Source: Acidimicrobiia bacterium
GTDB taxonomy: Bacteria; Actinomycetota; Acidimicrobiia; Acidimicrobiales; Aldehydirespiratoraceae
NCBI GenBank assembly: GCA_022820805.1
Contig: JAJEEV010000037.1
Coordinates: 71,923 to 135,922, forward strand
Length of the DNA stretch: 64,000 bases
Direction: 5' to 3'
Under the pieces are notes generated by a model. That model did no database searches, was not told where the DNA came from, and worked only from the letters and a program-made list of their open reading frames with translations. The translations under genes were made by a program, and so were the position numbers. Of the stretch, positions 9,175 through 60,664 are shown piece after piece; position 1 is the stretch's first letter; every line of letters begins with the position of its first letter.

Positions 9175-10370
9175 CAATTGGCGCTTGTCCTCAGGCGGCG
9201 CCGGCCGGCGTCCGCGGCAATGGCGGCCAGCAGGGCGCAGGCCGCGATCGTGAGGAACCCGGCGGTGTATGAGACCCGCTCCGCCAGCAGCCCGAACGCG
9301 AACGGTCCGACCACCCCGCCGACGTTGAGCCCTCCCGAGGTCATGCCGGTGGCCGCGCCGGGGGAGTCCCGGTAGGCCTTCACCACGGCGTGGACCATCA
9401 GCCCGCTCCAGGCCCACCCGACCCCGAGCGCGAACATCGCTCCCGCCGGGACCAGGACCTTGGAGCCGGTGGCCGCGGCCAGATACCCCAGCGTGCTGGT
9501 GCCCAGCAGCAGCGACACGATCCGCAGATGCCCGGACTCGAAGCGGTCGGCGAGGAATCCCGCCGCGATCCGGGTGGCGATGGGCAGCCCGCTGGCCACC
9601 GCCAGCAGGCCCCCGGCCAAGCCCTCGGCCAGGCCGGCGTCGGTGGCGGCCGACACGAAGAACGCGGCCATGGTGGTGGCCGCGGCCGAGCCCAGCGCGG
9701 CGGCCAGCCCGATCAGGTTCAGTGGCCCGTAGTCGATCTTGCTCAGGCCCCGGGACGCGCCCCCGGTCCGGACCGTATGGCCGGGCCGGGCCTGGTATCC
9801 GGGGGCGAGCAGCAGGCCGGTCAGGGGCACCGCCACCGCGAACCCGAACGCCCACCGCCATCCCAGCGTTCGCCCGATGGCGGGCACGGCCAGGCCGGCC
9901 AGCAGAACCGACAGGGGCACCGCTGCGGCCTGGATGCCGAAGAACAGGCCGTGCCGTCTGGCGTCGGTGCCTCGGGCCACCATGGTCTTGGTCCCCGGTC
10001 CGGCGATGGTCAGCCCTATCGCTCCGACGCCCAGCGCGGCCAGCAGCATCCAGTAGGACTGCACCACCAGCGCCATCCCCAGCAGCGCGGCGGCGCTGCA
10101 GGTGTTGGCCACCCGCAGCGACCGCTGCGGTCCGAGGCGGTCCGTGAGCGTCCCGGCGTGGGGGGACGTCACCGCGGCCAGCAGGAAGTAGAAGGCCACC
10201 GCCGAGCCCAGGCCGGCCTCGGTGAATCCCAGGTCGTCGCCCATCTGCAATGCCAGCGCGCCCGCCCCGAACGCCGGGAACATGGCCGCGGTCTGCGACG
10301 ACACCGACGATACGAGTGATGTGACCGGCCGCGTCGGCTCGCCGGCCAGCCCGCTGCCTGTCAGGGTCAC
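9174..10370 (-). CDS. MFS transporter (upstream paralogue of tandem pair)
   Basis: Collinear similarity along the full length to 7981-9174 (e.g. DRLGPQRSLR, LGWRWAFG, YGPLNLIGLAA, LADRFESGHLR); GTG start. Confidence 0.85.
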   Translation of the reverse strand: MTLTGSGLAGEPTRPVTSLVSSVSSQTAAMFPAFGAGALALQMGDDLGFTEAGLGSAVAFYFLLAAVTSPHAGTLTDRLGPQRSLRVANTCSAAALLGMALVVQSYWMLLAALGVGAIGLTIAGPGTKTMVARGTDARRHGLFFGIQAAAVPLSVLLAGLAVPAIGRTLGWRWAFGFAVAVPLTGLLLAPGYQARPGHTVRTGGASRGLSKIDYGPLNLIGLAAALGSAAATTMAAFFVSAATDAGLAEGLAGGLLAVASGLPIATRIAAGFLADRFESGHLRIVSLLLGTSTLGYLAAATGSKVLVPAGAMFALGVGWAWSGLMVHAVVKAYRDSPGAATGMTSGGLNVGGVVGPFAFGLLAERVSYTAGFLTIAACALLAAIAADAGRRRLRTSAN

Positions 10371-10419
10371 CGGGGAGATCTTGTTCCCTGGCGGCCGGGG
10401 ACGCGGTAGTGGGCGACCC

Positions 10420-11400
10420 TCATTCGGAGGGGTCGCGGTCGCCGAAGTTCTCCTGCAGCACTGTGCCGATCTCGGCGATGGCGCCGAGGTCGGTGGCGTC
10501 GTGCACGTTGAAGATCAGGCCGTCGAGTCCTGCCTCGAACAGGGCGGCCACCTGCTCGCACACGCTGTCGCGGTCGCCCTCCAGCGCGTACCCGCTGTAC
10601 TTGTCCATGCTCATGTTGCGGGTGGCTCGCAGCTCCGCGCCGAGGCGGGCGGCGTCGTCGGCGGTGTCGGCCATGACTATCGCGCCGAGGCGGGTCTTGG
10701 AGATCTCGGCCGGGTCGCGGCCGGCCTTCTCGCAGTGGGCCTCGAGCACGTCGAGTTTGTGGCGCACGCCGGCCGGGTCGCCGAAGATGTTGCAGGCGTC
10801 GGCGTGGCGGGCCGCGATCTGCAGGGTTCGCCGCTCGCCGCCCCCGCCCACCAGGATGGGAGGCCCACCGTCGGAGATGGGCCGGGGACGGTTCAGGGCT
10901 CCGGCCACCCGGTGGTGCGGGCCCGACACGGTTGCCGGGCCGCCGTCGAACATGGCCCGGCAGATCCGCACCGCGTCCTCCAGCCGGTTCATGCGCTCGC
11001 CCACGGGCGGGAAGTCGAAGCCGTAGGCGATGTGTTCGGCCTCGAACCAGGCCGCGCCGATGCCGAGCACCGCTCTGCCCCCGGACACGACGTCGAGGGT
11101 GGTGACCGTCTTGGCCAGCAGGGCGGGGTTGCGGTAGGTGACGCCGGTGACCAGTGCGCCCAGCCGGGCGGTCCGGGTCCACGGCGCGAGGGCGGCCAGC
11201 AGGGTGTAGGGCTCGAGCATCGGTTCGTGGTCCGAGCCCATCGCCGGTATCTGGTGGAAGTGGTCCATCACCCACAGCGAGTCGAATCCGCTGTTCTCGG
11301 CCGTGGCCGCGGCCGCGCACACCGCGTTGAACAGGTCGGCGTCGTCGATGCCGAGGTACGTGAAGCTGGGAATGTTGAACCCGAACCGAGTAAGCGTCAT
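10420..11400 (-). CDS. Luciferase-like (LLM class) F420-dependent oxidoreductase
   Basis: FGFNIPSF, ENSGFDSLWVMDHF, VSGGRAVLGIGAAWFE; start taken at MTLTRF (alternative ATG 11418). Confidence 0.85.
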   Translation of the reverse strand: MTLTRFGFNIPSFTYLGIDDADLFNAVCAAAATAENSGFDSLWVMDHFHQIPAMGSDHEPMLEPYTLLAALAPWTRTARLGALVTGVTYRNPALLAKTVTTLDVVSGGRAVLGIGAAWFEAEHIAYGFDFPPVGERMNRLEDAVRICRAMFDGGPATVSGPHHRVAGALNRPRPISDGGPPILVGGGGERRTLQIAARHADACNIFGDPAGVRHKLDVLEAHCEKAGRDPAEISKTRLGAIVMADTADDAARLGAELRATRNMSMDKYSGYALEGDRDSVCEQVAALFEAGLDGLIFNVHDATDLGAIAEIGTVLQENFGDRDPSE

Positions 11401-34597: not shown

Positions 34598-35992
34598 GTG
34601 ACTTCTTCCTTGCCCACTGTCGACCGGGTCGTGGCCGGCGGCACTGTCGTGTCGGGGACGGGCACCCAGGTAGCCGACGTGCTGATCGCCGGCGAGCAGA
34701 TCGCGGCCATCGCCGCCCCCGGGGTGGTCCCGCTTCCCGATTCGGTCGAGCGCATCGACGCTGCCGGCAAGTGGGTTTTGCCCGGCATGGTCGACGTGCA
34801 CGTGCATCTGCGTGAGCCCGGCTACGTCCACAAGGAGGACATCTCCACCTGCACCGCCGCGGCCGCGGCCGGGGGAGTGACCACCGTGTTCGGGATGCCC
34901 AACCTGAACCCGGTCACCAAGAACCTGCAGGTGCTCGAGGAGCTGTTCGACCTCTACGACTCCAAGAGCATCGTGGACTGGAACCACAACCCGGTGCCCA
35001 GCGTGCTGCACGAGGTGGAGCCCATGGCCGGCGCCGGGGTGGCCGCCTTCAAGATCTACATGGTGGTCGACACCGGCCGCGACTACCCCCATCCCAGCGG
35101 CACCGGCATCCACGACCACGGCCACCTGCTGCGCATGTTCGAGGCCATCGGCCCCACCGGGCTGCCGTTCATGATCCACCCCCACGACCAGGCCATCATG
35201 GACGTCACCGAGCAGACCCACTGGGACCGGGGCGACCGCAGCCCGGCCGCCTACGCCCAGACCCTGGCCACCCACAACGGGCTGATCTGGGACGCCGCCA
35301 TCGCGGTGATCCTCCAGATGGCCGAGGCCACCGGCACCAAGCTCCACATCGTGCACATGCAGACCGAGGGCTCGGTCGAGCTGGTGCGCCGGGCCAAGGA
35401 GCGGGGCGTGCCGGTGAGCTGCGAGGTCAACCACTGGGCGCTGTTCCTGTCGCGCTGGCAGGACATCGAGAAGCTCGGCCCCTACGCCCTGTCGTACTGG
35501 GTGCCCGACCACCACCGCGAGGCTGTGTGGGGCGCCCTCAACGACGGCACTATCGACATGCTGTCGTCGGACCATGCCCCCCATACCCGGGCCGAGAAGG
35601 AGGTCGGGTGGGAGGACTGCTGGGCCTGCCACACCGGCACTCCCGGCATCCAGGAGCAGTACCCGATGCTGCTGGACTGCCACATGGACGGGATGATCTC
35701 GCTGCCGAGGGTGGCCGAGGTGGTGGCCGAGGAGCCGGCCACCGAGTTCAGGCTGCCGTCCAAGGGCTTCCTGCGGCCCGGCTACGACGCCGACATCGTG
35801 ATCTTCGACCCGAACGACCAGACCCGCCACTCGGCCGACACCGTGCTGTCGAAGTGCGGCTGGACTCCTTATGACGGCCGGGTCACCAAGGGCCGGATCC
35901 ATCGCACGATCGTGCGGGGCCGCGACGTGTACGTCGACCGCAAGGTGGTCGGCGAGCCCGGCTGGGGCCGCCTGGCCCGCCCCTCACTGTGA
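34598..35992 (+). CDS. Cyclic amidohydrolase (dihydroorotase/allantoinase/hydantoinase-like)
   Basis: GGAGG 8 nt before GTG 34598; PGMVDVHVHLREPG, GGVTTVFGMPN, SSDHAPH. Confidence 0.85.
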   Translation: MTSSLPTVDRVVAGGTVVSGTGTQVADVLIAGEQIAAIAAPGVVPLPDSVERIDAAGKWVLPGMVDVHVHLREPGYVHKEDISTCTAAAAAGGVTTVFGMPNLNPVTKNLQVLEELFDLYDSKSIVDWNHNPVPSVLHEVEPMAGAGVAAFKIYMVVDTGRDYPHPSGTGIHDHGHLLRMFEAIGPTGLPFMIHPHDQAIMDVTEQTHWDRGDRSPAAYAQTLATHNGLIWDAAIAVILQMAEATGTKLHIVHMQTEGSVELVRRAKERGVPVSCEVNHWALFLSRWQDIEKLGPYALSYWVPDHHREAVWGALNDGTIDMLSSDHAPHTRAEKEVGWEDCWACHTGTPGIQEQYPMLLDCHMDGMISLPRVAEVVAEEPATEFRLPSKGFLRPGYDADIVIFDPNDQTRHSADTVLSKCGWTPYDGRVTKGRIHRTIVRGRDVYVDRKVVGEPGWGRLARPSL

Positions 35993-36048
35993 CCCGGGCC
36001 GTGACCCGCGCTGTGACCCGGGCCGTGACCCGGGCTAGACCGTGACTC
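35989..36048. repeat. 12-bp tandem repeat GTGACCCGGGCC x4-5 that reiterates the stop codon
   Basis: Units at 35989, 36001, 36013, 36025 (+ degenerate 36037); the first contains the TGA of 34598-35992 and each later unit has an in-frame TGA. Confidence 0.8.
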
Positions 36049-36070
36049 TGCTCAGGAGGACACCACTGCC

Positions 36071-37066
36071 ATGACTGACACTTCTGCCATGAAGTTCGGC
36101 CTGCTGATGCCCCATTTCGGCGGCCATGCCAGCCGCCGGGCCGTGCTCGACGGGGCCGTGCTGGCCGAGAGCTTCGGCTTCGACTCGCTGTGGGTGCGCG
36201 ACCACCTGGTGTTCGAGCCCCACTCCGAGATGGAGGCGGCCAACATCACCTTCTACGAGGCTCTCACCACCCTCACCGCCATCGGGGCGGTCACCGAGAG
36301 CATCACCCTGGGCACCGGTTCGCTGATCCCGTTCCGGCACCCGGTCCACACCGCCATCAGCATCGGCACCCTGTGCAACCTGGTCGGCGACCGGGTGGTG
36401 CTCGGCTTCGGGGCCGGCACCTTCGACCACGAGTTCGACGTGATCGACATGGCGGGCATCGACCGGGTGGGGCTGGTGCGGTCCAACGCCGAGATCCTGC
36501 GCCGCCTGCTGGCTGAGGACGGCGTCACCTACCACGACGACGTGTACTCCTTCGAGAACATCTCCATCGAGCCCAAGCCGGGGGCGCCGGTGCCGTTCTG
36601 GTACTGCGGGGCCACCCCCCGCTCGGCCCGCCTGGCCGCCGAGTACTGCGACGGCTGGATGCCGGGGCGCACCACCCTGCTCACCATCGCCGAGCGGGTG
36701 GCCACCATGCAGCGGATGACGGCGGACAACGGCCGGCCCATGCCGACGGTGGCGGTGATCCCGCCCACGTCGATCGCGGCCACCCATGACCTCGCTCTGG
36801 AGGGCGTGAACCTGGAGGGCCTGCTGGCGTGGGCCAACCTGCGGGGCAAGTGGTGGGCCAAGCCCCCGTCGGGCAGTTTCGCCACCGCCACCGACATCGA
36901 GGGCTCGCTCATCGCGGGCACCCCCGACGAGGTTGTCGAGCAGGTGGGGCGCTTCGCCGATGTGGGCGTGGAGCACCTGGTGTTCGACCTGCGCATGAAC
37001 TTCGACCGCTGGTTCGCCTCCGTCGAGCTGCTCGGCCGGGAGGTCCTCCCCGCCCTGCGAGCCTGA
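36071..37066 (+). CDS. Luciferase-like (LLM class) F420-dependent oxidoreductase
   Basis: AGGAGGA 10 nt before ATG; ESFGFDSLWVRDHL, LVGDRVVLGFGAG. Confidence 0.85.
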   Translation: MTDTSAMKFGLLMPHFGGHASRRAVLDGAVLAESFGFDSLWVRDHLVFEPHSEMEAANITFYEALTTLTAIGAVTESITLGTGSLIPFRHPVHTAISIGTLCNLVGDRVVLGFGAGTFDHEFDVIDMAGIDRVGLVRSNAEILRRLLAEDGVTYHDDVYSFENISIEPKPGAPVPFWYCGATPRSARLAAEYCDGWMPGRTTLLTIAERVATMQRMTADNGRPMPTVAVIPPTSIAATHDLALEGVNLEGLLAWANLRGKWWAKPPSGSFATATDIEGSLIAGTPDEVVEQVGRFADVGVEHLVFDLRMNFDRWFASVELLGREVLPALRA

Positions 37067-37159: not shown

Positions 37160-37263
37160 AGCTGAGGAGCTTCGCCACCGGGCCATACAGCGGTGCGCCA
37201 CCGTCCTTCGTTAGCGTACGACATGCATCGCATCCGTACCGCTTGGCCCCGGGGAGAAGCCCC

Positions 37264-37830
37264 ATGACAGCAACCGCCCCCGCCCACCGGGTAGCGCCGC
37301 AAGTGACCCAAACCCCCGATCCGGACACACCCCCGCAATCGCAGGCCGCGGGCTCGGCCGTGGAGGCCGGGACCGCCAGGCCCAGGCTGCGAGACCAGAT
37401 CGCAGAGAACCCCCTGCTGAGCCTCGTCGGTGCATTGCTGACGCTCGGCGGCACTGCGATAGTCGCGCTGCTTCTCTTCACACTGACCAGCATCAACACC
37501 CGCATCGACGGTGTTGAGGTGAGCCTCGGTGACCGCATTGATCGTCTGGACGCGAGGCTCAGTGACCGTATCGATGGTGTTGTGGTGAGCCTCGGTGACC
37601 GCATTGACGGTGTTGAGGTGAGCCTCGGTGAACGTATCGATCGCGTCGAGATGAGGCTCAGCGCACGCATGGACCGCCTTGAGGACAAGATGGACGCCGG
37701 CTTCGCGGCCCAGGGCGCCGCGATCGCCGAGAACGACCGGAAGTTGACCGCGCTGGTCGCCATGCTGAACGTGACTGCTGAAGTCGACGCCGCGCTCGAA
37801 GGCAGGCTGCTGATCCCCGGCGGGAGCTGA
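37264..37830 (+). CDS. Membrane-anchored coiled-coil repeat protein (Pro-rich N-terminus, one TM helix, RIDxL repeats)
   Basis: GGGGAGAAG before ATG; TM LLSLVGALLTLGGTAIVALLLF; repeats SLGDRIDRLDARLSDRIDGVVVSLGDRIDGVEVSLGERIDRVE; RMDRLEDKMD resembles 56555-57067. Confidence 0.65.
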   Translation: MTATAPAHRVAPQVTQTPDPDTPPQSQAAGSAVEAGTARPRLRDQIAENPLLSLVGALLTLGGTAIVALLLFTLTSINTRIDGVEVSLGDRIDRLDARLSDRIDGVVVSLGDRIDGVEVSLGERIDRVEMRLSARMDRLEDKMDAGFAAQGAAIAENDRKLTALVAMLNVTAEVDAALEGRLLIPGGS

Positions 37831-37873: not shown

Positions 37874-38353
37874 GTGAAGGAAGCAGTTGACCGGGAGTTC
37901 GTGGTAGCGGCCGCCCGTGACGAGGTGTGGCCCCGCCTGCTGGACGTGCAGGCGGTGGCGTCGTGGCTGCCGATCATGCACTCGGTGACCGAGATGTCGT
38001 CGAGCCCCGCCGGGATCGACGGCTCCAGCTTCCAGGCCGCTTTCGAGGACAAGGTCGGCCCGTTCTCGCTGCGAGCCGACCTGCACATCGAGGTTGCCGG
38101 TGTGAGCGAGCCCGAGGAGGTGGCCATCCGTGCCCGGGGCGAGGACCGCCAGATCCGCTCCCGCATCATGATCGACGCCGCCTGCCGCCTGTCCGACGCC
38201 GGTCCCAAACAGACCCGGGTCCGACTCAGCGGCTCCTACGAGATCACCGGTCGGGTCGCCACCCTCGGCGCCGGCGTCATCCGCTCCAAGGCCAACAAGC
38301 TAATAGACACCTTCTGCACCAACGCCGCCTCGGGCCTCGCCACTGGGGGCTGA
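37874..38353 (+). CDS. CoxG-like SRPBCC protein
   Basis: CoxG pattern (VDREFVVAAARDEVWPRLLDVQAVASWLP, GRVATLGAGVIRSKANKLIDTF); start GTG 37874 (ORF opens at TTG 37847). Confidence 0.75.
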   Translation: MKEAVDREFVVAAARDEVWPRLLDVQAVASWLPIMHSVTEMSSSPAGIDGSSFQAAFEDKVGPFSLRADLHIEVAGVSEPEEVAIRARGEDRQIRSRIMIDAACRLSDAGPKQTRVRLSGSYEITGRVATLGAGVIRSKANKLIDTFCTNAASGLATGG

Positions 38354-38365
38354 CTCCCTGAGCTG

Positions 38366-38430
38366 AGAGGCCGAGCCGCGCAGGCACGCGAATCCGGCCT
38401 GCTCCGACTCCGCTCTCGCAGGAATACGCC
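38366..38430. repeat. Degenerate partial copy (C) of the MITE-like element
   Basis: AGAGGCCGAGC and AGGCACGCGAATCCGGCC shared with copy B; starts 12 nt after the coxG-like stop. Confidence 0.4.
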
Positions 38431-38461
38431 ATTCGGGCCGTTCTCGACAAAGATCGGGCCT

Positions 38462-39253
38462 GTGACGGTGTTGCCTGAGTTGGGGCTGGTCCGGTCTGAC
38501 GACCTGGACGGGGTGCTGGCTGCGGTCGACTACGACCATGCCCCCTACGCCGGCGGGACCGAGTTGGTGCCGGCCATGGGGCTGGGTCTGCGCCGTCCGG
38601 CGGCCGTTGTGGACCTCAAGCGGGTCGAGGCCCTGAGGGGGATCGACGTCGACGCCGGGGCCGCCACGGTGACTATCGGGGCGGCGGTGACCCATCGCCG
38701 GCTGTCGGACCATCCGGCTGTCCGCGAGCACCTGCCCACGCTGGCCGCCGCGGCGTCCCGGGTGGGCAACGCCCGGGTGCGCTCCACCGGAACCGTGGGC
38801 GGCAACCTCTGCTTCGCCGAGCCCCGCTCCGACCTGGGCTGCGTGCTGGTCGCGCTGGGTGCCACCGCCGAGGTTCGCTCCGCCCGGGTCACCCGCACCC
38901 TCAGCATCGACGAGCTGATCGTGGGCGCATTCGAGACCTCGCTAGAGCCGGACGAGATCCTCACCACCATTGCTGTGCCGTTCGAGCCGCCCGGCATGTC
39001 GTACTGGAAGCTCCAGAGCTACGAGCGGCCCACCCTCGGCGTCGCCCTGGTGGTCTCCGAGTCCCGGTGGGAGGTCACTGTGGGCGCGGCCACCGAGCGG
39101 CCCACCCGGGCCGTGCTCGCTGCGGGCGACACTGCCGGGCTGGCCGCCTTCGTCGACGGGTTGGAGCTCAGCGACGACATGACCGGCCCGCCCGAGTACA
39201 AGCGTTCGGTGTTGCGGTCCCACCTCGGACGGAACCTGGGGGCGACGGCATGA
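38462..39253 (+). CDS. Molybdenum hydroxylase FAD-binding (medium, CoxM-like) subunit
   Basis: YAGGTELVPAM, TVGGNLCFAEPRSD, PPEYKRSVL C-terminus. Confidence 0.85.
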   Translation: MTVLPELGLVRSDDLDGVLAAVDYDHAPYAGGTELVPAMGLGLRRPAAVVDLKRVEALRGIDVDAGAATVTIGAAVTHRRLSDHPAVREHLPTLAAAASRVGNARVRSTGTVGGNLCFAEPRSDLGCVLVALGATAEVRSARVTRTLSIDELIVGAFETSLEPDEILTTIAVPFEPPGMSYWKLQSYERPTLGVALVVSESRWEVTVGAATERPTRAVLAAGDTAGLAAFVDGLELSDDMTGPPEYKRSVLRSHLGRNLGATA

Positions 39254-39393
39254 CCGCCCTCGCGGCTACAAGCGATCGGTGCTGTGGGTTTGTCTCGAAC
39301 GGAACCTGGGGGCGACGGCATGACCGCCCGCCCGAGTACAAGCGCTCAGTGTTGCGGACCCACCTCGAGCGCGCATTAGGGGCGACCCGATGA
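39179..39393. repeat. Junction minisatellite: coxM 3' end repeated 3x (71/70/70 bp)
   Basis: Units start 39179, 39250, 39320 (ATGACCG..CCCGAGTACAAGCG..GGGGCGAC..), a fourth ATGACCGCC at 39390. Confidence 0.85.
39250..39393 (+). CDS. Junction-repeat mini-ORF (47 aa), stop/start-overlapped on both sides
   Basis: ATG overlaps coxM TGA (ATGA 39250-39253); its TGA overlaps the next ATG (39390-39393); C-terminus PPEYKRSVLRTHLERALGATR mimics the coxM end. Confidence 0.3.
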   Translation: MTALAATSDRCCGFVSNGTWGRRHDRPPEYKRSVLRTHLERALGATR

Positions 39394-39485
39394 CCGCCGC
39401 ATCTCACGTGCGTGGGGTTGGTGCCGGCCCAACAGGCAGCCAGTGGCCGAACCACGGACCCAGCAGCCCCGGAGCGGTTCGGTGA
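39390..39485 (+). CDS. Junction-repeat mini-ORF (31 aa)
   Basis: ATGA overlap at 39390-39393, GTGA overlap with the coxS start at 39482-39485. Confidence 0.3.
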   Translation: MTAASHVRGVGAGPTGSQWPNHGPSSPGAVR

Positions 39486-40000
39486 CCGGTTCCCCGGCCG
39501 CGACCTCGACTGTGGTCCGGGTGCGGGTCAACGGCCGCGCCATCGAGATGTTGGTGCCGGTGCGGCTCACCGTGGCCGAACTGCTGCGGGACCGGCTCGG
39601 GCTCACCGGTACCAAGGTCAGCTGCGAGATGCAGGTGTGCGGCGTGTGCACGGTGCTGGTGGACGGCAACCCGGTCAGTTCATGCGCCACCCTGGCCTGC
39701 GACCTCCACGGCTCCGAAGTGCTCACCGTCGAGGGCCTGGCCCGGGGCCGGGACCTGCACCCGGTGCAGGAGGCCTTCATGGCCGCCAACGCCCTGCAGT
39801 GCGGCTTCTGCACGCCCGGTCTCATCATGATGGCCGTCGCCCTACTCGAGGATCATCCCGGCGCCGAGCCCGACGAGATCCGCGAGTGGATGGACGGGAA
39901 CCTGTGCCGCTGCACCGGCTACGCGCCCATCGAGACCGCAGTAACCGTCGCCGCGGCGCGCATGGCCGCCACTACCGCTCCGCCGGAGGGCGACCAGTGA
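39482..40000 (+). CDS. Molybdenum hydroxylase [2Fe-2S] (small, CoxS-like) subunit
   Basis: CEMQVCGVCTV, CGFCTPG, CRCTGY; start set at GTG 39482 (coupled); ORF opens at 39443. Confidence 0.85.
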   Translation: MTGSPAATSTVVRVRVNGRAIEMLVPVRLTVAELLRDRLGLTGTKVSCEMQVCGVCTVLVDGNPVSSCATLACDLHGSEVLTVEGLARGRDLHPVQEAFMAANALQCGFCTPGLIMMAVALLEDHPGAEPDEIREWMDGNLCRCTGYAPIETAVTVAAARMAATTAPPEGDQ

Positions 40001-40041
40001 TCGCGGCGGTCGGCGCGGCGTGTTGGGACGGCGACCGGTGA
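39997..40041 (+). CDS. Junction-repeat mini-ORF (14 aa)
   Basis: GTG overlaps coxS TGA (GTGA 39997-40000); ends ..CWDGDR with TGA overlapping the next GTG (40038-40041). Confidence 0.25.
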   Translation: MIAAVGAACWDGDR

Positions 40042-40133
40042 GGGTACGGCTCCGGCTCCGGTGGCGGCTCGCACCGGCGCGGTGGTCGACTGGGTGCCCG
40101 ATGGGCGCGGCGTGTTGGGAGGGCGACCAGTGA
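40038..40133 (+). CDS. Junction-repeat mini-ORF (31 aa)
   Basis: Ends ..CWEGDQ-TGA overlapping coxL GTG (GTGA 40130-40133); 40104-40133 repeats 40012-40041. Confidence 0.25.
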   Translation: MRVRLRLRWRLAPARWSTGCPMGAACWEGDQ

Positions 40134-42478
40134 GCGTCCCCACTGGCAGCGTGCCTCGCAGCGACGGCTGGGAGAAGGTCACCGGCCGGGCCCGTTACGC
40201 CGTCGACATGGCCTTGCCCAACATGGCCCACGCAGCGGTGGTGCGCTCCGAGCGGGCCCACGCCCGCATCACCGGCATCGACCGGGCCGAGGCCCAAGCC
40301 GCCCCGGGTGTGATCGCGGTGGTCACCGCCGACGACCTCGGCTACCTCGGCCGCCGCTTCGGCCACATCGTCTGTGACCACCCGATCCTGGCCGTCGACA
40401 AGGTCCGCTACTACGGCGAACCGGTAGCGGTGGTGGTGGCCGAGACCCCCCAACAGGCCGCCGACGCGGCCGAGCTGGTGTGGGTCGACTACGACGACCT
40501 GCCCGCCCTCACCGGCGCGGCCGGCGCCCTCGCCTCCGATGCCCTCATCCACGAGCAGTCTTATCCCCCGCCCGGCGAGGCGTTCCTGGGCGTGGCTCCG
40601 GCCGCCTCCACCGACAACGTCGCCCACCATGACGAGCTGGCCTGGGGCGACGCCGGGGCCGCCCTGGCCGCGGCCGCCACCGTGGTCGAGACCACCGCCA
40701 GCTTCCCGCTGGTCTACGGCTACGCCATGGAGACCTACAACGCGGTGGCCGACTGGCAGCACGGCTCCCTGCACGTGATCTCCACCGCCCAGCACCCGCT
40801 GATGGTCCGCAAGGAGCTGGCCCGCATCTTCTCGCTGCCGCTGGCCGCGGTGCGCGTCGAGGTGCCCTACATCGGCGGCGGCTACGGCTCCAAGTCCTAC
40901 ACCAAGCTCGAGCCCCTGGCGTCGGTGGTGTCGTGGGCCGCGGGACGGCCCATCAAGGTCACCACTGACATCGAGGGGGCCATGAACACCACCCGGGCCG
41001 ACGGCGCCGTCGTCACCGTGCGCACCGGCTTCGACGCCGGCGCCCGCATCTGCGCCCGCGACATCGAGATCCGTTTCGACACCGGCGCCTACGCCGACAA
41101 CAGCCCTCTAGTGCTCACCAAGAGCATCAACCGCAGTTTCGGCCCCTACCGGGTGCCCAACCTGCGGGTGCGGGGGACCGCGGTGTACACCAACACCTCC
41201 CCGGCGTCCTCGTACCGGGGTTTCGGCGCGCCCCAGGGTGCGCTGGCCGGCGAGCTGAACATGGACATGGCTGCCGAGCGGCTCGGCATCGACCCCGTCG
41301 AGCTGCGCCGCCGCAACCTGCTTGCCCCCGGCGACACGATCATCGACGGCAAGCGCCCCCTCGACGCCGACCTGGTCGCCGACCTCGACGCCATCGTCGC
41401 CGCGCTCGAACGCCCCGCCCCCAGCGGTGCGCACGCACCCGCTGATGTGGCCGGCAGGGTCCGTGCCGCTGATTCCGCTTCGGCCCCGGCCACAGATGGC
41501 GGCCACGACGCTGGCAGCGGCCCTCTCCGGGGTTGGGGGGTGGCCGTGTCCGCCAGCGACGCCGGCGCGTCGCCGATCTCCACCGCCCAGGTCCGCATGC
41601 ACGCCGACGGGTCGGTCACGCTGCTGGTGAGCAGCACCGAGATGGGTCAGGGCAGCCGCACCGCGCTGGCCCAGATCGCGGCCCGGGAGCTGGGCGTGCC
41701 GATGGAGGCGGTGGCCGTCGGCCAGAGCGACACCCGGTTCACGCCCTTCGAGTGGACCACCGGCGCCAGCCGCACCACCACCGTGGTCGGCCTGGCCGTG
41801 CAGGCCGCCTGCACCGACCTGTGGAACAACCTGCGAGCCAAGGCCGCCGAATCCGCCGGCGTCTCCCTCGACCGCACCGAGGTCCACGACGGCCGGGTCT
41901 ATGTCGACGGCGAGGCGCTGACCCCGGCTGAGGTGATCCGGCAGTGGTTCGGCGCCGACGCCGGCGAGGTCGTGGGCGTGGGGGTGATCCGCCGTGACGG
42001 CGCCACCGAGATGCTGCCCCCGTTCTGGGAGATCGGCGCCGTCGGGGTGGAGGTGTCGGTCGATACCGCCACCGGCGAGGTCACCGTCGAGCACCTGGTG
42101 ACCGTGGGCGACGTCGGCCATGCCGTGAACCCCGACCTGGTCAAGGGCCAGGATTTGGGCGCGGCCACCCAAGGTCTGGGCATCGCCCTGTGGGAGGAGA
42201 TGGTCTACGACGGCGAGCAGCTCACCAACCCCAACCTGATCGAGTACCGGGTGCCCCGCCTGCGCGACACTCCCCGCCGGATCACGTCGGTGCTGGCCGA
42301 GCGGGGCGACGGGGCCGGACCCTACGGCGTGAAGGGCGCCGGCGAGGGCGCCCTCAACCCGGTCCCGGCCGCTGTGGCCGCCGCCGTCGGCCGGGCCGTC
42401 GGCGTATGGCCCACCGAGGTGCCCCTGACCCCGCCGAGGGTCTGGTCCCTCCTCCAGGAAGCCGCCAACGAGGTCTGA
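40130..42478 (+). CDS. Molybdopterin-binding (large, CoxL-like) subunit of a xanthine dehydrogenase-family hydroxylase
   Basis: EKVTGRARYAVDM, SSYRGFGAPQGA, GAGEGALNPVPAA; no CO-dehydrogenase VAYRCSFR-type signature seen. Confidence 0.9.
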   Translation: MSVPTGSVPRSDGWEKVTGRARYAVDMALPNMAHAAVVRSERAHARITGIDRAEAQAAPGVIAVVTADDLGYLGRRFGHIVCDHPILAVDKVRYYGEPVAVVVAETPQQAADAAELVWVDYDDLPALTGAAGALASDALIHEQSYPPPGEAFLGVAPAASTDNVAHHDELAWGDAGAALAAAATVVETTASFPLVYGYAMETYNAVADWQHGSLHVISTAQHPLMVRKELARIFSLPLAAVRVEVPYIGGGYGSKSYTKLEPLASVVSWAAGRPIKVTTDIEGAMNTTRADGAVVTVRTGFDAGARICARDIEIRFDTGAYADNSPLVLTKSINRSFGPYRVPNLRVRGTAVYTNTSPASSYRGFGAPQGALAGELNMDMAAERLGIDPVELRRRNLLAPGDTIIDGKRPLDADLVADLDAIVAALERPAPSGAHAPADVAGRVRAADSASAPATDGGHDAGSGPLRGWGVAVSASDAGASPISTAQVRMHADGSVTLLVSSTEMGQGSRTALAQIAARELGVPMEAVAVGQSDTRFTPFEWTTGASRTTTVVGLAVQAACTDLWNNLRAKAAESAGVSLDRTEVHDGRVYVDGEALTPAEVIRQWFGADAGEVVGVGVIRRDGATEMLPPFWEIGAVGVEVSVDTATGEVTVEHLVTVGDVGHAVNPDLVKGQDLGAATQGLGIALWEEMVYDGEQLTNPNLIEYRVPRLRDTPRRITSVLAERGDGAGPYGVKGAGEGALNPVPAAVAAAVGRAVGVWPTEVPLTPPRVWSLLQEAANEV

Positions 42479-42858
42479 CCCGCCCCGAGATTGGGTCCCT
42501 CAGATCTCGGGTGCGCAACCTGTCGTATACCCGGACAACTCGCCCCGAGATTGCGTCCCCCCAGATCTCGGGTGCGCAACGTGTCGTATACCTGTGCTGC
42601 TCGCCCCGAGATTGCGTCCCCCCAGATCTCGGGTGCGCAACGTGTCGTATACCCGTACTGCTCGCCCCGAGATTCTGTCCCCCAGATCTCGGGTGCGAAA
42701 CGTGTCGTATGCCCGCATTACTCGCCCCGAGATTGCGTCCCCCAGATCTCGGGCGCGAAACGTGTCGTATGCCCGCATTACTCGCCCCGAGATTGGGTCC
42801 CTCAGATCTCGGGCGCGATACCGGTTGTATGCCTGTGCTGTTCGCCCCGAGATTCTGC
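42479..42858. repeat. Tandem array, 6.3 copies of a 60/61-bp hairpin-containing unit (family 2a)
   Basis: Units start 42481, 42541, 42602, 42663, 42723, 42783, 42843; each has inverted repeat CCCGAGAT..ATCTCGGG and GTGTCGTAT(A/G)CC. Confidence 0.9.
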
Positions 42859-45090: not shown

Positions 45091-45543
45091 TCACGGGGTG
45101 GGGTGGGTGAAGCGGGCGATGTCGGTGGCGGCCTCCGGGTAGGTGGCGGTCAGCTCATCGCGGTCGCCCAACTCGAAGCCGTCGTCCTGGTAGGCGGGGG
45201 CCAGGGTGGCGCCGGTCAGCGACCAGTCGCCGGTGGTGGTGGCCGCCATCCACACCCCCGCGGGCACGGCCACCATCGGTCGCTGGCCCTGGGCCAGGTC
45301 GTCGCCCAGCACGGGCCGGCTCACGGCGCCGTCGGGCGCCAGCAGCAGCATCTCCACGGCCGCGCCCGCGTAGTGGTGCCACAGCTCGGGCCCCGGCAGG
45401 CGGTGCAGGGCCGAGAAGTCGCCCGGCCTCATCACGAAGTAGATGGCCGACGAGTGCTCGTCACGCCAGGTCTGGGTCCACATCCCGCCCTCCTGCAGCA
45501 GCGGCTCCAGTCCCAGCAGTTCGATCACGTCGTCAGCGTTCAT
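45091..45543 (-). CDS. Cupin_5 (DUF985) family protein
   Basis: LLQEGGMWTQTWR, AIYFVMRPGDFSALHRLPGPELWHHYAG, ATLAPAYQDDGFEL. Confidence 0.8.
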   Translation of the reverse strand: MNADDVIELLGLEPLLQEGGMWTQTWRDEHSSAIYFVMRPGDFSALHRLPGPELWHHYAGAAVEMLLLAPDGAVSRPVLGDDLAQGQRPMVAVPAGVWMAATTTGDWSLTGATLAPAYQDDGFELGDRDELTATYPEAATDIARFTHPTP

Positions 45544-45614
45544 GGTTGTGTCCTTGCCGCGGTTGCTGTGGGGTGAGGGGCGGACGGGGGCTCGATCACG
45601 TCGTCAGCGTTCAT
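45540..45614 (-). CDS. Junction-repeat mini-ORF (24 aa, MNADDVIEPPS..)
   Basis: ATGA overlaps at both ends (45611-45614 and 45540-45543); N-terminus copies the cupin N-terminus. Confidence 0.3.
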   Translation of the reverse strand: MNADDVIEPPSAPHPTATAARTQP

Positions 45615-45694
45615 GGTTGTGTCCTTGCCGCGGTTGCTGTGCGTTGAGCGTTGAGGGAGGTGGACGGCAGTTCGATCACGTAGTCAGCGTTCAC
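45611..45694 (-). CDS. Junction-repeat mini-ORF (27 aa, VNADYVIEL..)
   Basis: GTGA overlap at 45691-45694, ATGA overlap at 45611-45614. Confidence 0.3.
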   Translation of the reverse strand: MNADYVIELPSTSLNAQRTATAARTQP

Positions 45695-45717
45695 GATGCG
45701 CTCTGCCGGCCGGTCAT
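45691..45717 (-). CDS. Junction mini-ORF (8 aa)
   Basis: ATG overlaps mtaD TGA (ATGA 45714-45717); its TGA overlaps the next GTG. Confidence 0.2.
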   Translation of the reverse strand: MTGRQSAS

Positions 45718-47133: not shown

Positions 47134-47258
47134 TCCCCTCAGATCTCGGGTGTGGAACCGGTTGTATGCCGGTGCTGTTCGCCCCGAGATTGCGTCCCTC
47201 AGATCTCGGGTGTGGAACCGGTTGTATGCCCGTGCTGTTCGCCCCGAGATTACGTCCC
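47134..47258. repeat. Family-2 hairpin repeat, about 2 units (60-bp period)
   Basis: CAGATCTCGGGTGTGGAACCGGTTGTATGCC at 47140 and 47200; CGCCCCGAGATT at 47180 and 47240. Confidence 0.85.
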
Positions 47259-49606: not shown

Positions 49607-49644
49607 GTCGCGGCGTCAGCGGGACTGCTTGCGGGGCCTCACGG

Positions 49645-49715
49645 AGCGGATGACGAGAATCGAACTCGCATTCTCAGCTTGGGAAGCTGATGTTCTACCA
49701 TTGAACTACACCCGC
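49645..49715 (-). tRNA. tRNA-Gly (anticodon CCC)
   Basis: Cloverleaf read by hand: acceptor GCGGGTG/CATCCGC, D arm GTTC-AATGGTA-GAAC, anticodon arm TCAGC-TTCCCAA-GCTGA, T arm GCGAG-TTCGATT-CTCGT, discriminator T; CCA not fully encoded. Confidence 0.9.
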
Positions 49716-49753: not shown

Positions 49754-50030
49754 CCGTCCTGGGCTGGTTCTCGGGTGTGTTGTGTGTCGTACACCCGCCG
49801 CTGCGCTCCCGAGAATTGGTGGGTCCGTCCTCGGCTGGTTCTCGGGTGTGTTGTGTGTCGCACACCCCCTGCTGCGCTCCCGAGAATTGGTGGGTCCGTC
49901 CTCGGCTGGTTCTCGGGTGTGTTGTGTGTCGTACGCCCGCCGCTGCGCTCCCGAGAATTGGTGGGTCCGCCCTCGGCTGGTTCTCGGGTGTGTTGTGTGT
50001 CGCACGCCCCCTGGTGCGCTCCCGAGAATT
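49754..50030. repeat. Tandem array, 4 copies of a 71-bp hairpin-containing unit (family 2b)
   Basis: GGCTGGTTCTCGGGTG at 49762, 49833, 49904, 49975; each unit also has GTGTGTCG(T/C)AC(A/G)CC and CTCCCGAGAATT. Confidence 0.9.
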
Positions 50031-50050
50031 CGTCGGCCGGCGGCGAACCG

Positions 50051-52430: not shown

Positions 52431-52449
52431 GCTCCGCTGCACCTCCCCC

Positions 52450-52584
52450 GGCTGGTTCTCGGGAGTGTTGGGTGTCGTACACCCCCCGGTGCGCTCCCGA
52501 GAATCGGTGGCCCCGCCCTCACCTGGTTCTCGGGAGTGTTGGGTGTCGTATAGCCGCCTCCACGCTCCCGAGAAATCTCGGGGC
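52450..52584. repeat. Family-2 hairpin repeat, about 2 units (71-bp period, family 2c)
   Basis: CTGGTTCTCGGGAGTGTTGGGTGTCGTA at 52452 and 52523; ends in tight palindrome CCCGAGAAATCTCGGGG. Confidence 0.85.
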
Positions 52585-53195: not shown

Positions 53196-53199
53196 CGCA

Positions 53200-53395
53200 G
53201 CCCGCAGCCCGGAGCCCGTGGCCTGTGGCCGGCAGCCTGTGGCCGGCAGCCCGTGGCCTGTGGCCGGCAGCCCGGAGCCCGTGGCCTGTGGCTCGGAGCC
53301 CGTGGCCTGTGGCCGGCAGCCTGTGGCTCGGAGCCCGGGGCCTGTGGCCGGCAGCCCGTGGGCCGGCAGCCCGTGGCCCGGCTTGGCCTGGGTGG
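53200..53395. repeat. Degenerate GC-rich short tandem repeats (GCCCGTGGCCTGTGGCCGGCA-type)
   Basis: Fills the convergent gap between the dcd stop (53195) and the P450 stop (53409). Confidence 0.8.
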
Positions 53396-54626: not shown

Positions 54627-54632
54627 TTCCCC

Positions 54633-54812
54633 GGTCACGCTAGGCAGGAAGGGTTGATTGTCGCAATGAGCGCCTCGGGGACGACCAGGTCCCGGCAGGC
54701 GTGCGGTCACGCTAGGCAGGAAGGGCTGATTGTCGCAATAGACGCCTCGGGGACGACCAGGTCCCGGCAGGCGTGCGGTCACGCTAGGCAGGAAGGGTTG
54801 ATTGTCGCAATG
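54633..54812. repeat. 72-bp tandem repeat x2.5 of the SDR gene 5' region in the P450/SDR divergent promoter
   Basis: GGTCACGCTAGGCAGGAAGGG(T/C)TGATTGTCGCAAT at 54633, 54705, 54777; the third copy ends in the SDR ATG. Confidence 0.9.
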
Positions 54813-55637
54813 GCGCTGTTCGATGCGTTCCGGTTCGACGGCAGGCGGGTGCTGGTGGTGGGGGGTGCCACCGGGATGGGCGCCGCCGCGGCTGAGCTGG
54901 CCCTGGCCGCCGGTGCGGAGGTGGTGGTCATGGACCGGGCCGAGGTGACCCTGGCCGGGGCGACCGCCATCGGCTTGGACTTGGCCGAGCAGGCGTCGAT
55001 CGAGGCCGCGGTGGACGCTTGCGGCGGGCCGGTGCACGCCCTGCTGGCGTGCGCGGGAGTGGCCGACGGCACGCCGGGCCTCGAGCGGATCAACTTCGTC
55101 GGGCATCGTCACCTGATCGATCGCATGCTCGATGCCGGGATGCTGGCTGCGGGCTCGGCCATCGGCTTCATCTCGTCGTCGGCGGGCCTGGGCTGGGAGT
55201 CGAACCTCGAGGAGTTCAAGGAGGTGCTGGCCATCACCGACTTCGACGAGGCCGCGGCCTGGTTCGTGGCCCATCGCAAGGCCGACTACTTCCACACCAA
55301 GCAGGCGGTGTGCGCCTATGTCGCTGCCCAGGCCTACCCGATGCTTCAGCGGGGGGTTCGCATCAACGCCATCTGCCCGGGCCCGACGGTGACCCCGCTG
55401 GCCGAGGCCAACAGGGATCTGTGGCTGGAGTTCGGCGCCGACTACCGGTCCGACGCGGGGGTGGAGGCTTCCACGCCCATGGAGCAGGCCTACCCGCTGC
55501 TGTTCCTGTGCAGTGACGCCGCCGCGTACGTCACCGGGGTGACGTTGATCAGCGACGCCGGCTACATCAGCGCGGGAGTCACGGGGTCGTATCCCTCGGC
55601 CACCGACCCGGCCAACTTCCTCCTGGGCCGTTTCTGA
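54810..55637 (+). CDS. Short-chain dehydrogenase/reductase (SDR)
   Basis: VLVVGGATGMG cofactor motif, YFHTKQAV (YxxxK), INAICPGP; in-frame alternative ATG at 54666. Confidence 0.85.
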   Translation: MALFDAFRFDGRRVLVVGGATGMGAAAAELALAAGAEVVVMDRAEVTLAGATAIGLDLAEQASIEAAVDACGGPVHALLACAGVADGTPGLERINFVGHRHLIDRMLDAGMLAAGSAIGFISSSAGLGWESNLEEFKEVLAITDFDEAAAWFVAHRKADYFHTKQAVCAYVAAQAYPMLQRGVRINAICPGPTVTPLAEANRDLWLEFGADYRSDAGVEASTPMEQAYPLLFLCSDAAAYVTGVTLISDAGYISAGVTGSYPSATDPANFLLGRF

Positions 55638-60466: not shown

Positions 60467-60664
60467 AGGACCGGCCGTCGACTCGGGCCCGGCGGTCCAT
60501 CGAGGACCGGCCGTCGACTCGGGCCCGGCGGTCCATCGAGAACGGGCGGTCCATCGAGGACCGGCCGTCGACTCGGGCCCGGCGGTCCATCGAGAACCGG
60601 CGGTCCATCAAGAACCGGCCGTCTGTCAAGAACCGGTCGTCTGTCAAGGACCGGTCGTCATCTA
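60467..60664. repeat. 18-bp-based tandem repeat (AGRACCGGNCGTC...), about 11 units, some paired into 36-bp units
   Basis: AGGACCGGCCGTCGACTCGGGCCCGGCGGTCCATCG x3 interleaved with AGAAC(C/G)GGCGGTCCATC(G/A) etc. Confidence 0.85.

Follow-up and report, generated by a model that had tools for sequence, protein, structure and literature searches.

How can tandem repeats build up at the gene borders of an operon and leave the path from one gene to the next intact? The question is raised by a stretch of 64,000 nucleotides (nt) from an Acidimicrobiia bacterium of the family Aldehydirespiratoraceae (contig JAJEEV010000037.1; the whole stretch is called the window here). It carries an operon encoding the subunits of a xanthine-dehydrogenase-family molybdoenzyme, with a CoxG-like gene upstream (Pfam), and repeats occupy both the border between the coxM-like and coxS-like genes and that between the coxS-like and coxL-like genes. 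These repeats are probably locally generated junction minisatellites, in which selection keeps a relay of stop codons lying on the next start codon and, with it, translational coupling. The relay runs through four small open reading frames (mini-ORFs), and the features of the operon are the following.

38462-39253, + strand: coxM-like gene for the FAD-binding subunit (Pfam FAD_binding_5, E=2.9e-38); its stop is the TGA of ATGA 39250-39253 and its final 71 nt (39179-39249) form the first repeat unit.
39179-39389, + strand: minisatellite of three tandem units of 71, 70 and 70 nt, from Tandem Repeats Finder (TRF) and unit alignment.
39250-39393, + strand: mini-ORF 1, 47 amino acids (aa), starting at the ATGA on the coxM stop, spanning units 2 and 3 and stopping in ATGA 39390.
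39390-39485, + strand: mini-ORF 2, 31 aa, a 92-nt unit whose stop overlaps the coxS GTG at 39482.
39482-40000, + strand: coxS-like gene for the 2Fe-2S subunit (Pfam Fer2_2, E=2.8e-31; also a Fer2 domain).
39997-40041, + strand: mini-ORF 3, 14 aa, a 41-nt unit whose 3' 30 nt (40012-40041) are repeated at 40104-40133.
40038-40133, + strand: mini-ORF 4, 31 aa, a 92-nt unit ending in an exact copy of the coxS 3' end, GGAGGGCGACCAGTGA.
40130-42478, + strand: coxL-like gene for the molybdopterin-binding subunit (Pfam MoCoBD_1/2 and Ald_Xan_dh_C).

From coxM to coxL the chain is complete. NTGA motifs are read in the window at 39250, 39320, 39390, 39482, 39997, 40038 and 40130, and each link of the chain is an ATGA or a GTGA in which a stop and the next start overlap by 4 nt, with none missing. 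The ATGA at 39320 is not a link, the period there being 70 nt and out of register. One example of the mini-ORF peptides is MTAASHVRGVGAGPTGSQWPNHGPSSPGAVR. The initial annotation had described the three copies of the coxM end, the recurrences of the coxS end, the overlap of every stop with the next start and the four mini-ORFs, and all of its coordinates and motifs were borne out. It had also pointed to the start-to-start distances, which are all 2 mod 3. This is true, although it is automatic once a chain of 4-nt overlaps exists, and the telling point is rather the absence of any break in the chain. A search of 38300-40300 for promoter- or terminator-like sites gave none.

The relay was then followed in 34 operons of Aldehydirespiratoraceae with 68 junctions, namely the window, 29 genomes and 4 metagenome contigs. 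A CoxL-based scan with one genome per species gave approximately 30 orthologous operons (CoxL 69-88% identity), and a CoxS-based metagenome scan added the 4 close contigs together with approximately 75 distant coxMSL-like operons. The relatives are metagenome-assembled genomes (MAGs) of Acidimicrobiales or 'Ca. Aldehydirespirator', many of them complete chromosomes, and the family includes sponge symbionts (PMC11706023). The CoxM-like orthologs share 74-92% identity over 33 loci. In every operon the NTGA links were traced forward from the stop of coxM, as far as coxS, and from that of coxS, as far as coxL, and the chain was unbroken at 68 of the 68 junctions, 45 of which are expanded by mini-ORFs. 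The length of the junction ranges from 0 to 355 nt between coxM and coxS (M-S) and from 0 to 536 nt between coxS and coxL (S-L), with inserts totalling 47-355 nt and 32-536 nt, respectively, where there is an expansion. The number of units varies between species from 0 to 5 at M-S and from 0 to 7 at S-L, and there are 11 distinct non-zero total lengths at the former and 16 at the latter. Altogether 23 distinct mini-ORF periods occur (32, 41, 47, 50, 65, 71, 74, 77, 86, 89, 92, 95, 104, 125, 134, 140, 143, 164, 167, 182, 203, 227 and 230 nt).

Nine loci (L010, L013, L014, L015, L017, L019, L026, L028 and L040) have direct 4-nt overlaps at both junctions, which is likely to be the ancestral state; direct NTGA overlaps are found at S-L in L004 and L028. 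At the other end stands L030, with five 71-nt units at M-S, each of them a 24-aa copy of the CoxM C-terminus, VTGPSAFKRSVLRVHLKRALGAEL, and with one 92-nt unit and six identical 74-nt units before coxL. The units of L030 are nearly identical, and their expansion is therefore recent and ongoing. L012 and L025 carry 2x71 nt, and 2x86 nt were found in L029, L041, L042 and L043. Head-to-tail units of at least 10 bp with a copy number that varies among relatives, by which a minisatellite or variable-number tandem repeat (VNTR) is defined, are thus present (5x71 and 6x74 in L030, 2x71 in L012, 2x86 in L029). In L023 a 76-aa ORF contains four internal 45-nt repeats, and an internal repeat period of 69 nt was seen at S-L in L029 and L042. 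The distant coxMSL operons (CoxS at most 66% identical) have direct NTGA overlaps or ordinary spacers; mini-ORF relays are rare among them and the phenomenon is therefore specific to this clade. The coxL gene itself bears hypervariable in-frame tandem-repeat insertions at two sites in many species, with periods of 21-69 nt and up to approximately 120 aa extra (locus positions ~5780-6350 in L020-L023 and L026, ~5200-6300 in many loci, and residues ~592-597 of the window CoxL).

A strong argument for selection comes from the way in which these junctions change in length. In the S-L family of 89/92-nt units at least 10 interspecies indels were counted and every one is a multiple of 3, and the unrelated unit types (32, 41, 47, 65, 74, 86, 92 and 182 nt) all have periods of 2 mod 3. 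When 1-nt indels were simulated in expanded junctions the relay was kept in only 8.8% of trials, the remainder giving mostly an N-terminal fusion to the next gene (40%) or an out-of-frame overshoot (47%). Simulated 3-nt deletions kept it in 98.6% and substitutions in 96.9%. This simulation of indel fragility was used in place of a gap-shuffle null, which keeps both NTGA motifs and reduces to the 1-in-3 chance of frame. The window by itself shows a modest excess, its 26 same-strand junctions holding 5 mini-ORF relays where shuffling gives a mean of 2.1 (P ~0.007); over the set of relatives the excess is overwhelming. The proposal made at the outset, that a duplication at a junction survives only if it leaves the relay intact, is strongly supported by these unbroken chains, by the restriction of unit indels to multiples of three and by the destructiveness of about 91% of the simulated 1-nt indels. 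As none of the 27 distinct expanded states is broken, neutral evolution is excluded in spite of a heavy discount for shared ancestry, even if a purely mutational origin of the pattern keeps a small probability, as discussed below.

Repeats elsewhere in the same loci provide a control, for qualitative use, as the repeat-period table was built on crude gene calls from GC content at third codon positions (GC3) and some coding repeats (21/33 nt, of a DRIDxVxxSLG-repeat protein) were miscast as junction repeats. In this table 37 of the 39 intragenic tandem repeats have a period of 0 mod 3, and the repeats between convergent or divergent genes number 5, 3 and 5 for residues 0, 1 and 2. This suggests a simple rule that might hold genome-wide, with periods of 0 mod 3 within genes, of 2 mod 3 where a coupled junction is spanned and without constraint elsewhere.

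The sequence of the units indicates where they came from. The three tandem units of the coxM end (39179-39249, 71 nt; 39250-39319, 70 nt; 39320-39389, 70 nt) are followed by a further unit start, ATGACCGCC, at 39390, and TRF reports 39171-39368 with period 70, 2.8 copies, 76% matches and score 261. The pairwise identities of the three units are 56/71, 58/71 and 48/70. For their alignment the 71-nt units of L012, L025 and L030 were used, together with the ends of coxM in L013 and L027. Compared with every 71-nt unit of the other species, one nucleotide is deleted in units 2 and 3, at a place common to both. This puts the ATGA at 39320 out of register and joins the two units in one ORF of 140 nt (2 mod 3). 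In the reading frame of the 47-aa ORF the translation of unit 3 is PPEYKRSVLRTHLERALGATR, which is nearer to the C-termini of orthologous CoxM proteins (for example ...HLERALGTTR in L027) than is the actual CoxM end of the window, ...SHLGRNLGATA. Unit 3 is therefore taken as the ancestral coxM end, the protein now terminating in the most upstream copy.

Similar copies are found after coxS. An exact second copy of the coxS end GCGACCAGTGA (39990-40000) lies at 40123-40133, and a copy that differs at one position, GCGACCGGTGA, at 40031-40041; the longer end at 39985-40000 is found exactly at 40118-40133 and carries the Shine-Dalgarno (SD) sequence of coxL. A 30-nt repeat, GGCGCGGCGTGTTGGGA(C/G)GGCGACC(G/A)GTGA, is shared by 40012-40041 and 40104-40133 with 2 mismatches. 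The 5' ends of the units resemble the start of the downstream gene (MTTVP... in the L030 units, similar to the CoxL N-terminus; ATGACCGCCCCGGC... in the L023 and L025 units, similar to the coxS start) and the 3' ends resemble the end of the upstream gene (...SPEGDR or ...SPEALR, similar to the CoxS C-terminus and with its GGAGG). The 71-nt unit is bounded by an in-frame ATGACCGGCCC that is conserved in coxM and by the (A/G)TGACCGCC start, a microhomology that could explain the repeated duplication in different sub-clades. Searches of 772 kb of clade sequence, the window included, with blastn and with nhmmer profiles of both 92-nt families found matches only at the orthologous junction, apart from a few weak nhmmer matches (E~0.4-2) that lie, in several loci, some 3.4 kb further downstream. 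The M-S and S-L families did not match each other. Since the units carry the ends of the flanking genes and are found nowhere else in this sequence, they are local duplications and not a dispersed element. The initial annotation had drawn the same contrast with the interspersed repetitive units of mycobacteria (MIRUs), and it holds.

Each link is also equipped for initiation. SD-like complementarity is present at all links, with means of -6.3 to -8.6 kcal/mol vs -3.05 at random coding positions. The links of the window lie between -5.6 and -10.7 kcal/mol, among them the starts of mini-ORF 1 (39250, -8.4), coxS (39482, -6.2) and coxL (40130, -10.7). The alternative starts given by the longest ORF are 39443 for coxS (-2.5 kcal/mol) and 40061 for coxL (-3.9 kcal/mol). 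The orthologous coxS genes start with (A/G)TGACC at the same position as 39482, and the N-termini of the orthologous CoxL proteins align to 40130. The alignments together with the strength of the SD therefore favour 39482 and 40130 as the true starts. Gene callers that choose the longest ORF would mis-start both genes, and short-read assemblies break at these repeats, which should be considered in annotation.

The same architecture might have arisen in other ways. The pattern could be purely mutational, with NTGACC microhomologies spaced 2 mod 3 by chance and stop-poor ORFs of high GC content, the relay being a by-product. The 71-nt period is set by the conserved in-frame motif of coxM and the NTGACC start, and shuffled gaps with both NTGA kept still reach the gene in about one third of cases. 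This reading, however, leaves unexplained the later indels within units, which are of 3n only, and the keeping of the same rule by unrelated unit types. Moreover, the 1-nt indels that so often break the relay in simulation were seen in 0 of the 45 expanded junctions, and the non-coupled intergenic repeats of the same loci show all three residues; we regard a purely mutational pattern as unlikely. The peptides could also be functional in themselves, for example as assembly factors or regulators of the molybdoenzyme, and the 31-aa ORF of the 92-nt M-S unit does keep its exact length in 10 species, with a ratio of nonsynonymous to synonymous differences (pN/pS) of 0.57 in its own frame vs approximately 1.0 in the other two frames. 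Nevertheless the GC3 of the mini-ORFs is 0.66 vs 0.86-0.90 in the flanking genes, the pN/pS of the S-L ORFs reaches 0.85-0.93 (coxS, 0.20), and no Pfam matches were found in the mini-ORFs. The peptides vary widely (11-77 aa), are absent in many species and are often encoded by units that are out-of-frame or partial copies of the flanking genes, and a micropeptide function is quite unlikely.

A mobile MIRU-like dispersed element that inserts at start codons would agree with the size of the units, their site inside an operon and the -4 coupling, all of which fit the description of MIRUs (PMC12548453), and with the length of 92 nt at both junctions. The recognisable copies of adjacent gene ends, the lack of any copy away from the orthologous junction and the lack of a cross-match between the two 92-nt families in 772 kb speak against it, and such an element is very unlikely. 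Collapsed or expanded repeats and frameshift errors in the assembly have to be considered too. Short-read assemblies break at such repeats, and an independent Logan unitig (SRR16351697, 1.7 kb, 99.6% identity), found through its CoxG match, stops at window position 39258; exact-protein look-ups with the window CoxM and CoxS (three start variants) gave no match, CoxG alone being matched. The stop of the unitig, the one observation on the repeat at strain level, lies one base before repeat copies 2 and 3 diverge (39260) and is therefore as expected if the SRR16351697 sample has the repeat too. The same architecture is present in approximately 25 independent assemblies, including the complete chromosome-level MAGs OZ252146.1 (L030) and OZ241903.1 (L023), and also in older short-read metagenomes, which makes an artefact highly improbable. 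Finally, the conserved entity might be a cis-acting structured RNA, such as an attenuator, a processing site or a repetitive extragenic palindromic (REP)-like element, with incidental ORFs. REP-like hairpin minisatellites exist elsewhere in the genome (42481-42854, 49754-50030), but RNAalifold on nine 92-nt units gave an unfavourable covariation term (+1.33) with compensatory change in 3 of 24 pairs, and hence no covariation-supported hairpin of the kind that marks REP-like structured repeats; terminator-like hairpins were not found at the junctions. As a structure would not impose a triplet-frame constraint either, this explanation is extremely doubtful.

There are also points that weigh directly against selection for a coupled relay. 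Every link has its own SD, so that de novo initiation could suffice, and coupling is inseparable from SD-driven initiation by sequence. The frame constraint might reflect the mere avoidance of start-site occlusion or of junk fusions. Through shared ancestry fewer events are independent than the raw counts give, and, with the 71-nt period fixed at 2 mod 3 by the position of the microhomology, its recurrence may be a mutational bias and not selection. At a second relay of the window, between a dihydroorotase-like gene and a gene of an LLM-class oxidoreductase, the relay is replaced by an uncoupled TAG and an AT-rich spacer in 3 of 11 species. Locally generated minisatellites kept in frame by selection on the relay are nevertheless the probable explanation, and we infer translation of the mini-ORFs, selection on coupling itself and slippage as the source of the duplications. 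The conservation of the frame gives indirect support to a possible dependence of downstream translation on the upstream ORF being translated and terminated.

The locus could then have evolved as follows. The ancestral operon would have had direct 4-nt overlaps, coxM-NTGA-coxS-NTGA-coxL, and slippage or unequal recombination between short direct repeats (microhomology of the NTGACC type) would have duplicated segments spanning the junctions, the in-frame coxM motif and the start 71 nt downstream being one such repeat pair. Each copy would bring the 3' end of the upstream gene with its SD-like motif, an NTGA and in many cases the opening codons of the gene that follows. It would thereby offer ribosomes an SD and a start, and hence the reading frame would matter. 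With a period of 2 mod 3 the junk ORF would end on the next start and the ribosomes could be passed on by termination-reinitiation or by SD-assisted coupling. A period of 0 mod 3 would place a junk N-terminal extension on the next protein, and with 1 mod 3 out-of-frame ribosomes would cross the true start. Variants that break the relay, and later indels other than 3n, would be purged by selection. The peptides themselves would be nearly unconstrained, and what would count for the ORF is that ribosomes read it and terminate on the correct nucleotide.

These junctions may be seen as a natural mutation-accumulation experiment on translational coupling, in which duplications and indels at two junctions, dozens of them independent, have all kept the relay. 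They would provide unusually direct evolutionary evidence that the place where an upstream ORF terminates matters to the next gene, even when that ORF is junk. It is conceivable, although rather doubtful, that the number of mini-ORFs in a relay acts as a fast-evolving heritable translational rheostat, each step of termination-reinitiation attenuating the flow to the next cistron. If this were true, slippage would tune the CoxM:CoxS:CoxL ratio, and that of other operons too, with no change in promoter or coding sequence; the arrays would be a counterpart, with the frame preserved, to phase-variable contingency loci, and might be of adaptive value to sponge symbionts. They could also be used as markers in the strain typing of uncultured sponge symbionts.

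The 'cox-like' operon is not the only place in the window with such chains, and three further relays were identified.

35989-36074 (35989 to 36042 to 36071), + strand: second relay, four copies of GTGACCCGGGCC (18-aa ORF) followed by a 10-aa ORF, between a dihydroorotase/hydantoinase-like gene and an LLM-class oxidoreductase gene.
45540-45717 (45717 to 45694 to 45614 to 45543), - strand: third relay, mini-ORFs of 8, 27 and 24 aa with periods of 23, 80 and 71 nt.
10367-10423 (10423 to 10370), - strand: further relay.

Two of these three are made of tandem repeats. The relay between the dihydroorotase-like and LLM genes is kept in 6 of 11 species, with differing numbers of units. The 11-nt unit of L007 is accommodated, since each unit has a GTGA of its own. 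The junction of L010 (~260-495) contains approximately three 72-nt REP-like hairpin repeats, all within a single 78-aa ORF. This ORF begins in the GTGA that holds the upstream stop, and its own stop is part of a TGATG, which gives a -1 overlap with the start downstream. In the third relay the 80- and 71-nt units are copied from the downstream 150-aa gene (MNADDVIE...; window 45091-45543), of which they hold the 5' end and the SD. The 150-aa gene follows a TRZ/ATZ amidohydrolase gene and is missing in L004 and L021, where the amidohydrolase gene is joined to a 275-aa gene through a single 23-nt mini-ORF (MNIDEATI), and there has therefore been gene gain or loss at a relay junction. Relays are common in this clade and not obligatory.

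As for the enzyme, the three subunits fall below every NCBIfam equivalog cutoff, that of CO dehydrogenase included. The CoxL-like protein obtains 246.6 bits with TIGR02416 (CO dehydrogenase large subunit) against a cutoff of 991, and its best NCBIfam matches are XdhA and 4-hydroxybenzoyl-CoA reductase models, all of them sub-cutoff. 'Cox-like' is a fair label, the identity as a CO dehydrogenase being not proven.

The genome is unusually rich in minisatellites, as judged by TRF on the window. A 60-nt hairpin repeat (CCCGAGAT...ATCTCGGG) is present 6.2 times directly behind the coxL stop, between convergent genes (42481-42854), with two more copies 4.3 kb away (47136-47258). In the window it makes up a dispersed family of REP-like or terminator-like type, of which no copy was found in the loci of the other species. 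A 71-nt palindromic repeat follows a TAG stop and stands 3.9 times directly upstream of tRNA-Gly(CCC) (repeat 49754-50036; tRNA 49643-49715, - strand), with more copies 2.4 kb away (52446-52574). Between the LLM oxidoreductase gene and coxG, the ORF 37243-37830 encodes coiled-coil-like repeats of 11 and 22 aa (DRIDGVEVSLGDRIDRLDARLS); its repeat lies at 37504-37659 with TRF periods of 33 and 66 nt, and the homologous region of other loci has 21/33-nt repeats in variable copy number. Further minisatellites occur after a TAG stop (60467-60659, 18/36/54 nt), between convergent genes (53196-53382, 7/14/21 nt) and inside a 628-aa ORF (54632-54816, 72 nt x2.6). The junction repeats that follow TAG stops (49754-50030 and 60467-60659) are outside coupled junctions.

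Among known systems the closest are the MIRUs. According to the account of Supply et al. 1997 given in PMC12548453, these are a dispersed and apparently mobile family of Mycobacterium with one consensus at many loci, and a unit contains a small ORF that overlaps the stop and the start of its neighbours with -4 spacing, inside operons. The senX3-regX3 MIRU unit is 77 bp long, which is 2 mod 3 (PMC9392950). The arrays described here share with them tandem units of tens of bp (41, 70/71 and 92 nt) between co-directional operon genes, a mini-ORF with -4 overlaps at both ends, periods of 2 mod 3, here in 34 operons, and a copy number that varies between lineages, in this clade from species to species; insertion is presumably tolerated since coupling is preserved. 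They differ in that each junction has its own unit derived from the adjacent gene ends, with no copies elsewhere in the 772 kb, and in that different species have acquired several unrelated unit types at one and the same junction. The host belongs to the Acidimicrobiia (Aldehydirespiratoraceae), another class of Actinomycetota than that of Mycobacterium, and the units are set apart from the MIRU consensus by description and by their local origin. The junction arrays of the cox-like operons thus appear to work like MIRUs without being MIRUs, there being no interspersed family. No report of a non-mycobacterial or locally derived equivalent was found in a literature search that did not cover all journals. 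The MIRU principle would in this way extend past mycobacteria and past mobile elements, as ordinary junction duplications can yield a relay.

Coupled genes of prokaryotes are most commonly joined by an NTGA (-4) overlap that is preceded by an SD-like motif (PMC12548453), and every link here is of this form, an NTGA on the same strand with an SD-like motif upstream. Coupled pairs usually have a single overlap of two real genes, whereas here up to 7 apparently non-functional mini-ORFs are chained. The upstream short ORFs that deliver ribosomes, and the cassettes of bicistronic design (PMC12548453), are single ORFs in a 5' leader, in contrast to the operon-internal, repeated and copy-variable ORFs of this operon. 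With bacterial VNTRs and contingency loci the arrays have in common a slippage-prone sequence and a fast change of copy number, the copies of L030 being identical; contingency repeats, however, switch genes by breaking the frame, and here only frame-preserving states were seen. The principle of the MIRUs and of -4 coupling is already known, and what is striking in these operons is its frame-exact conservation across the clade through dozens of length changes.

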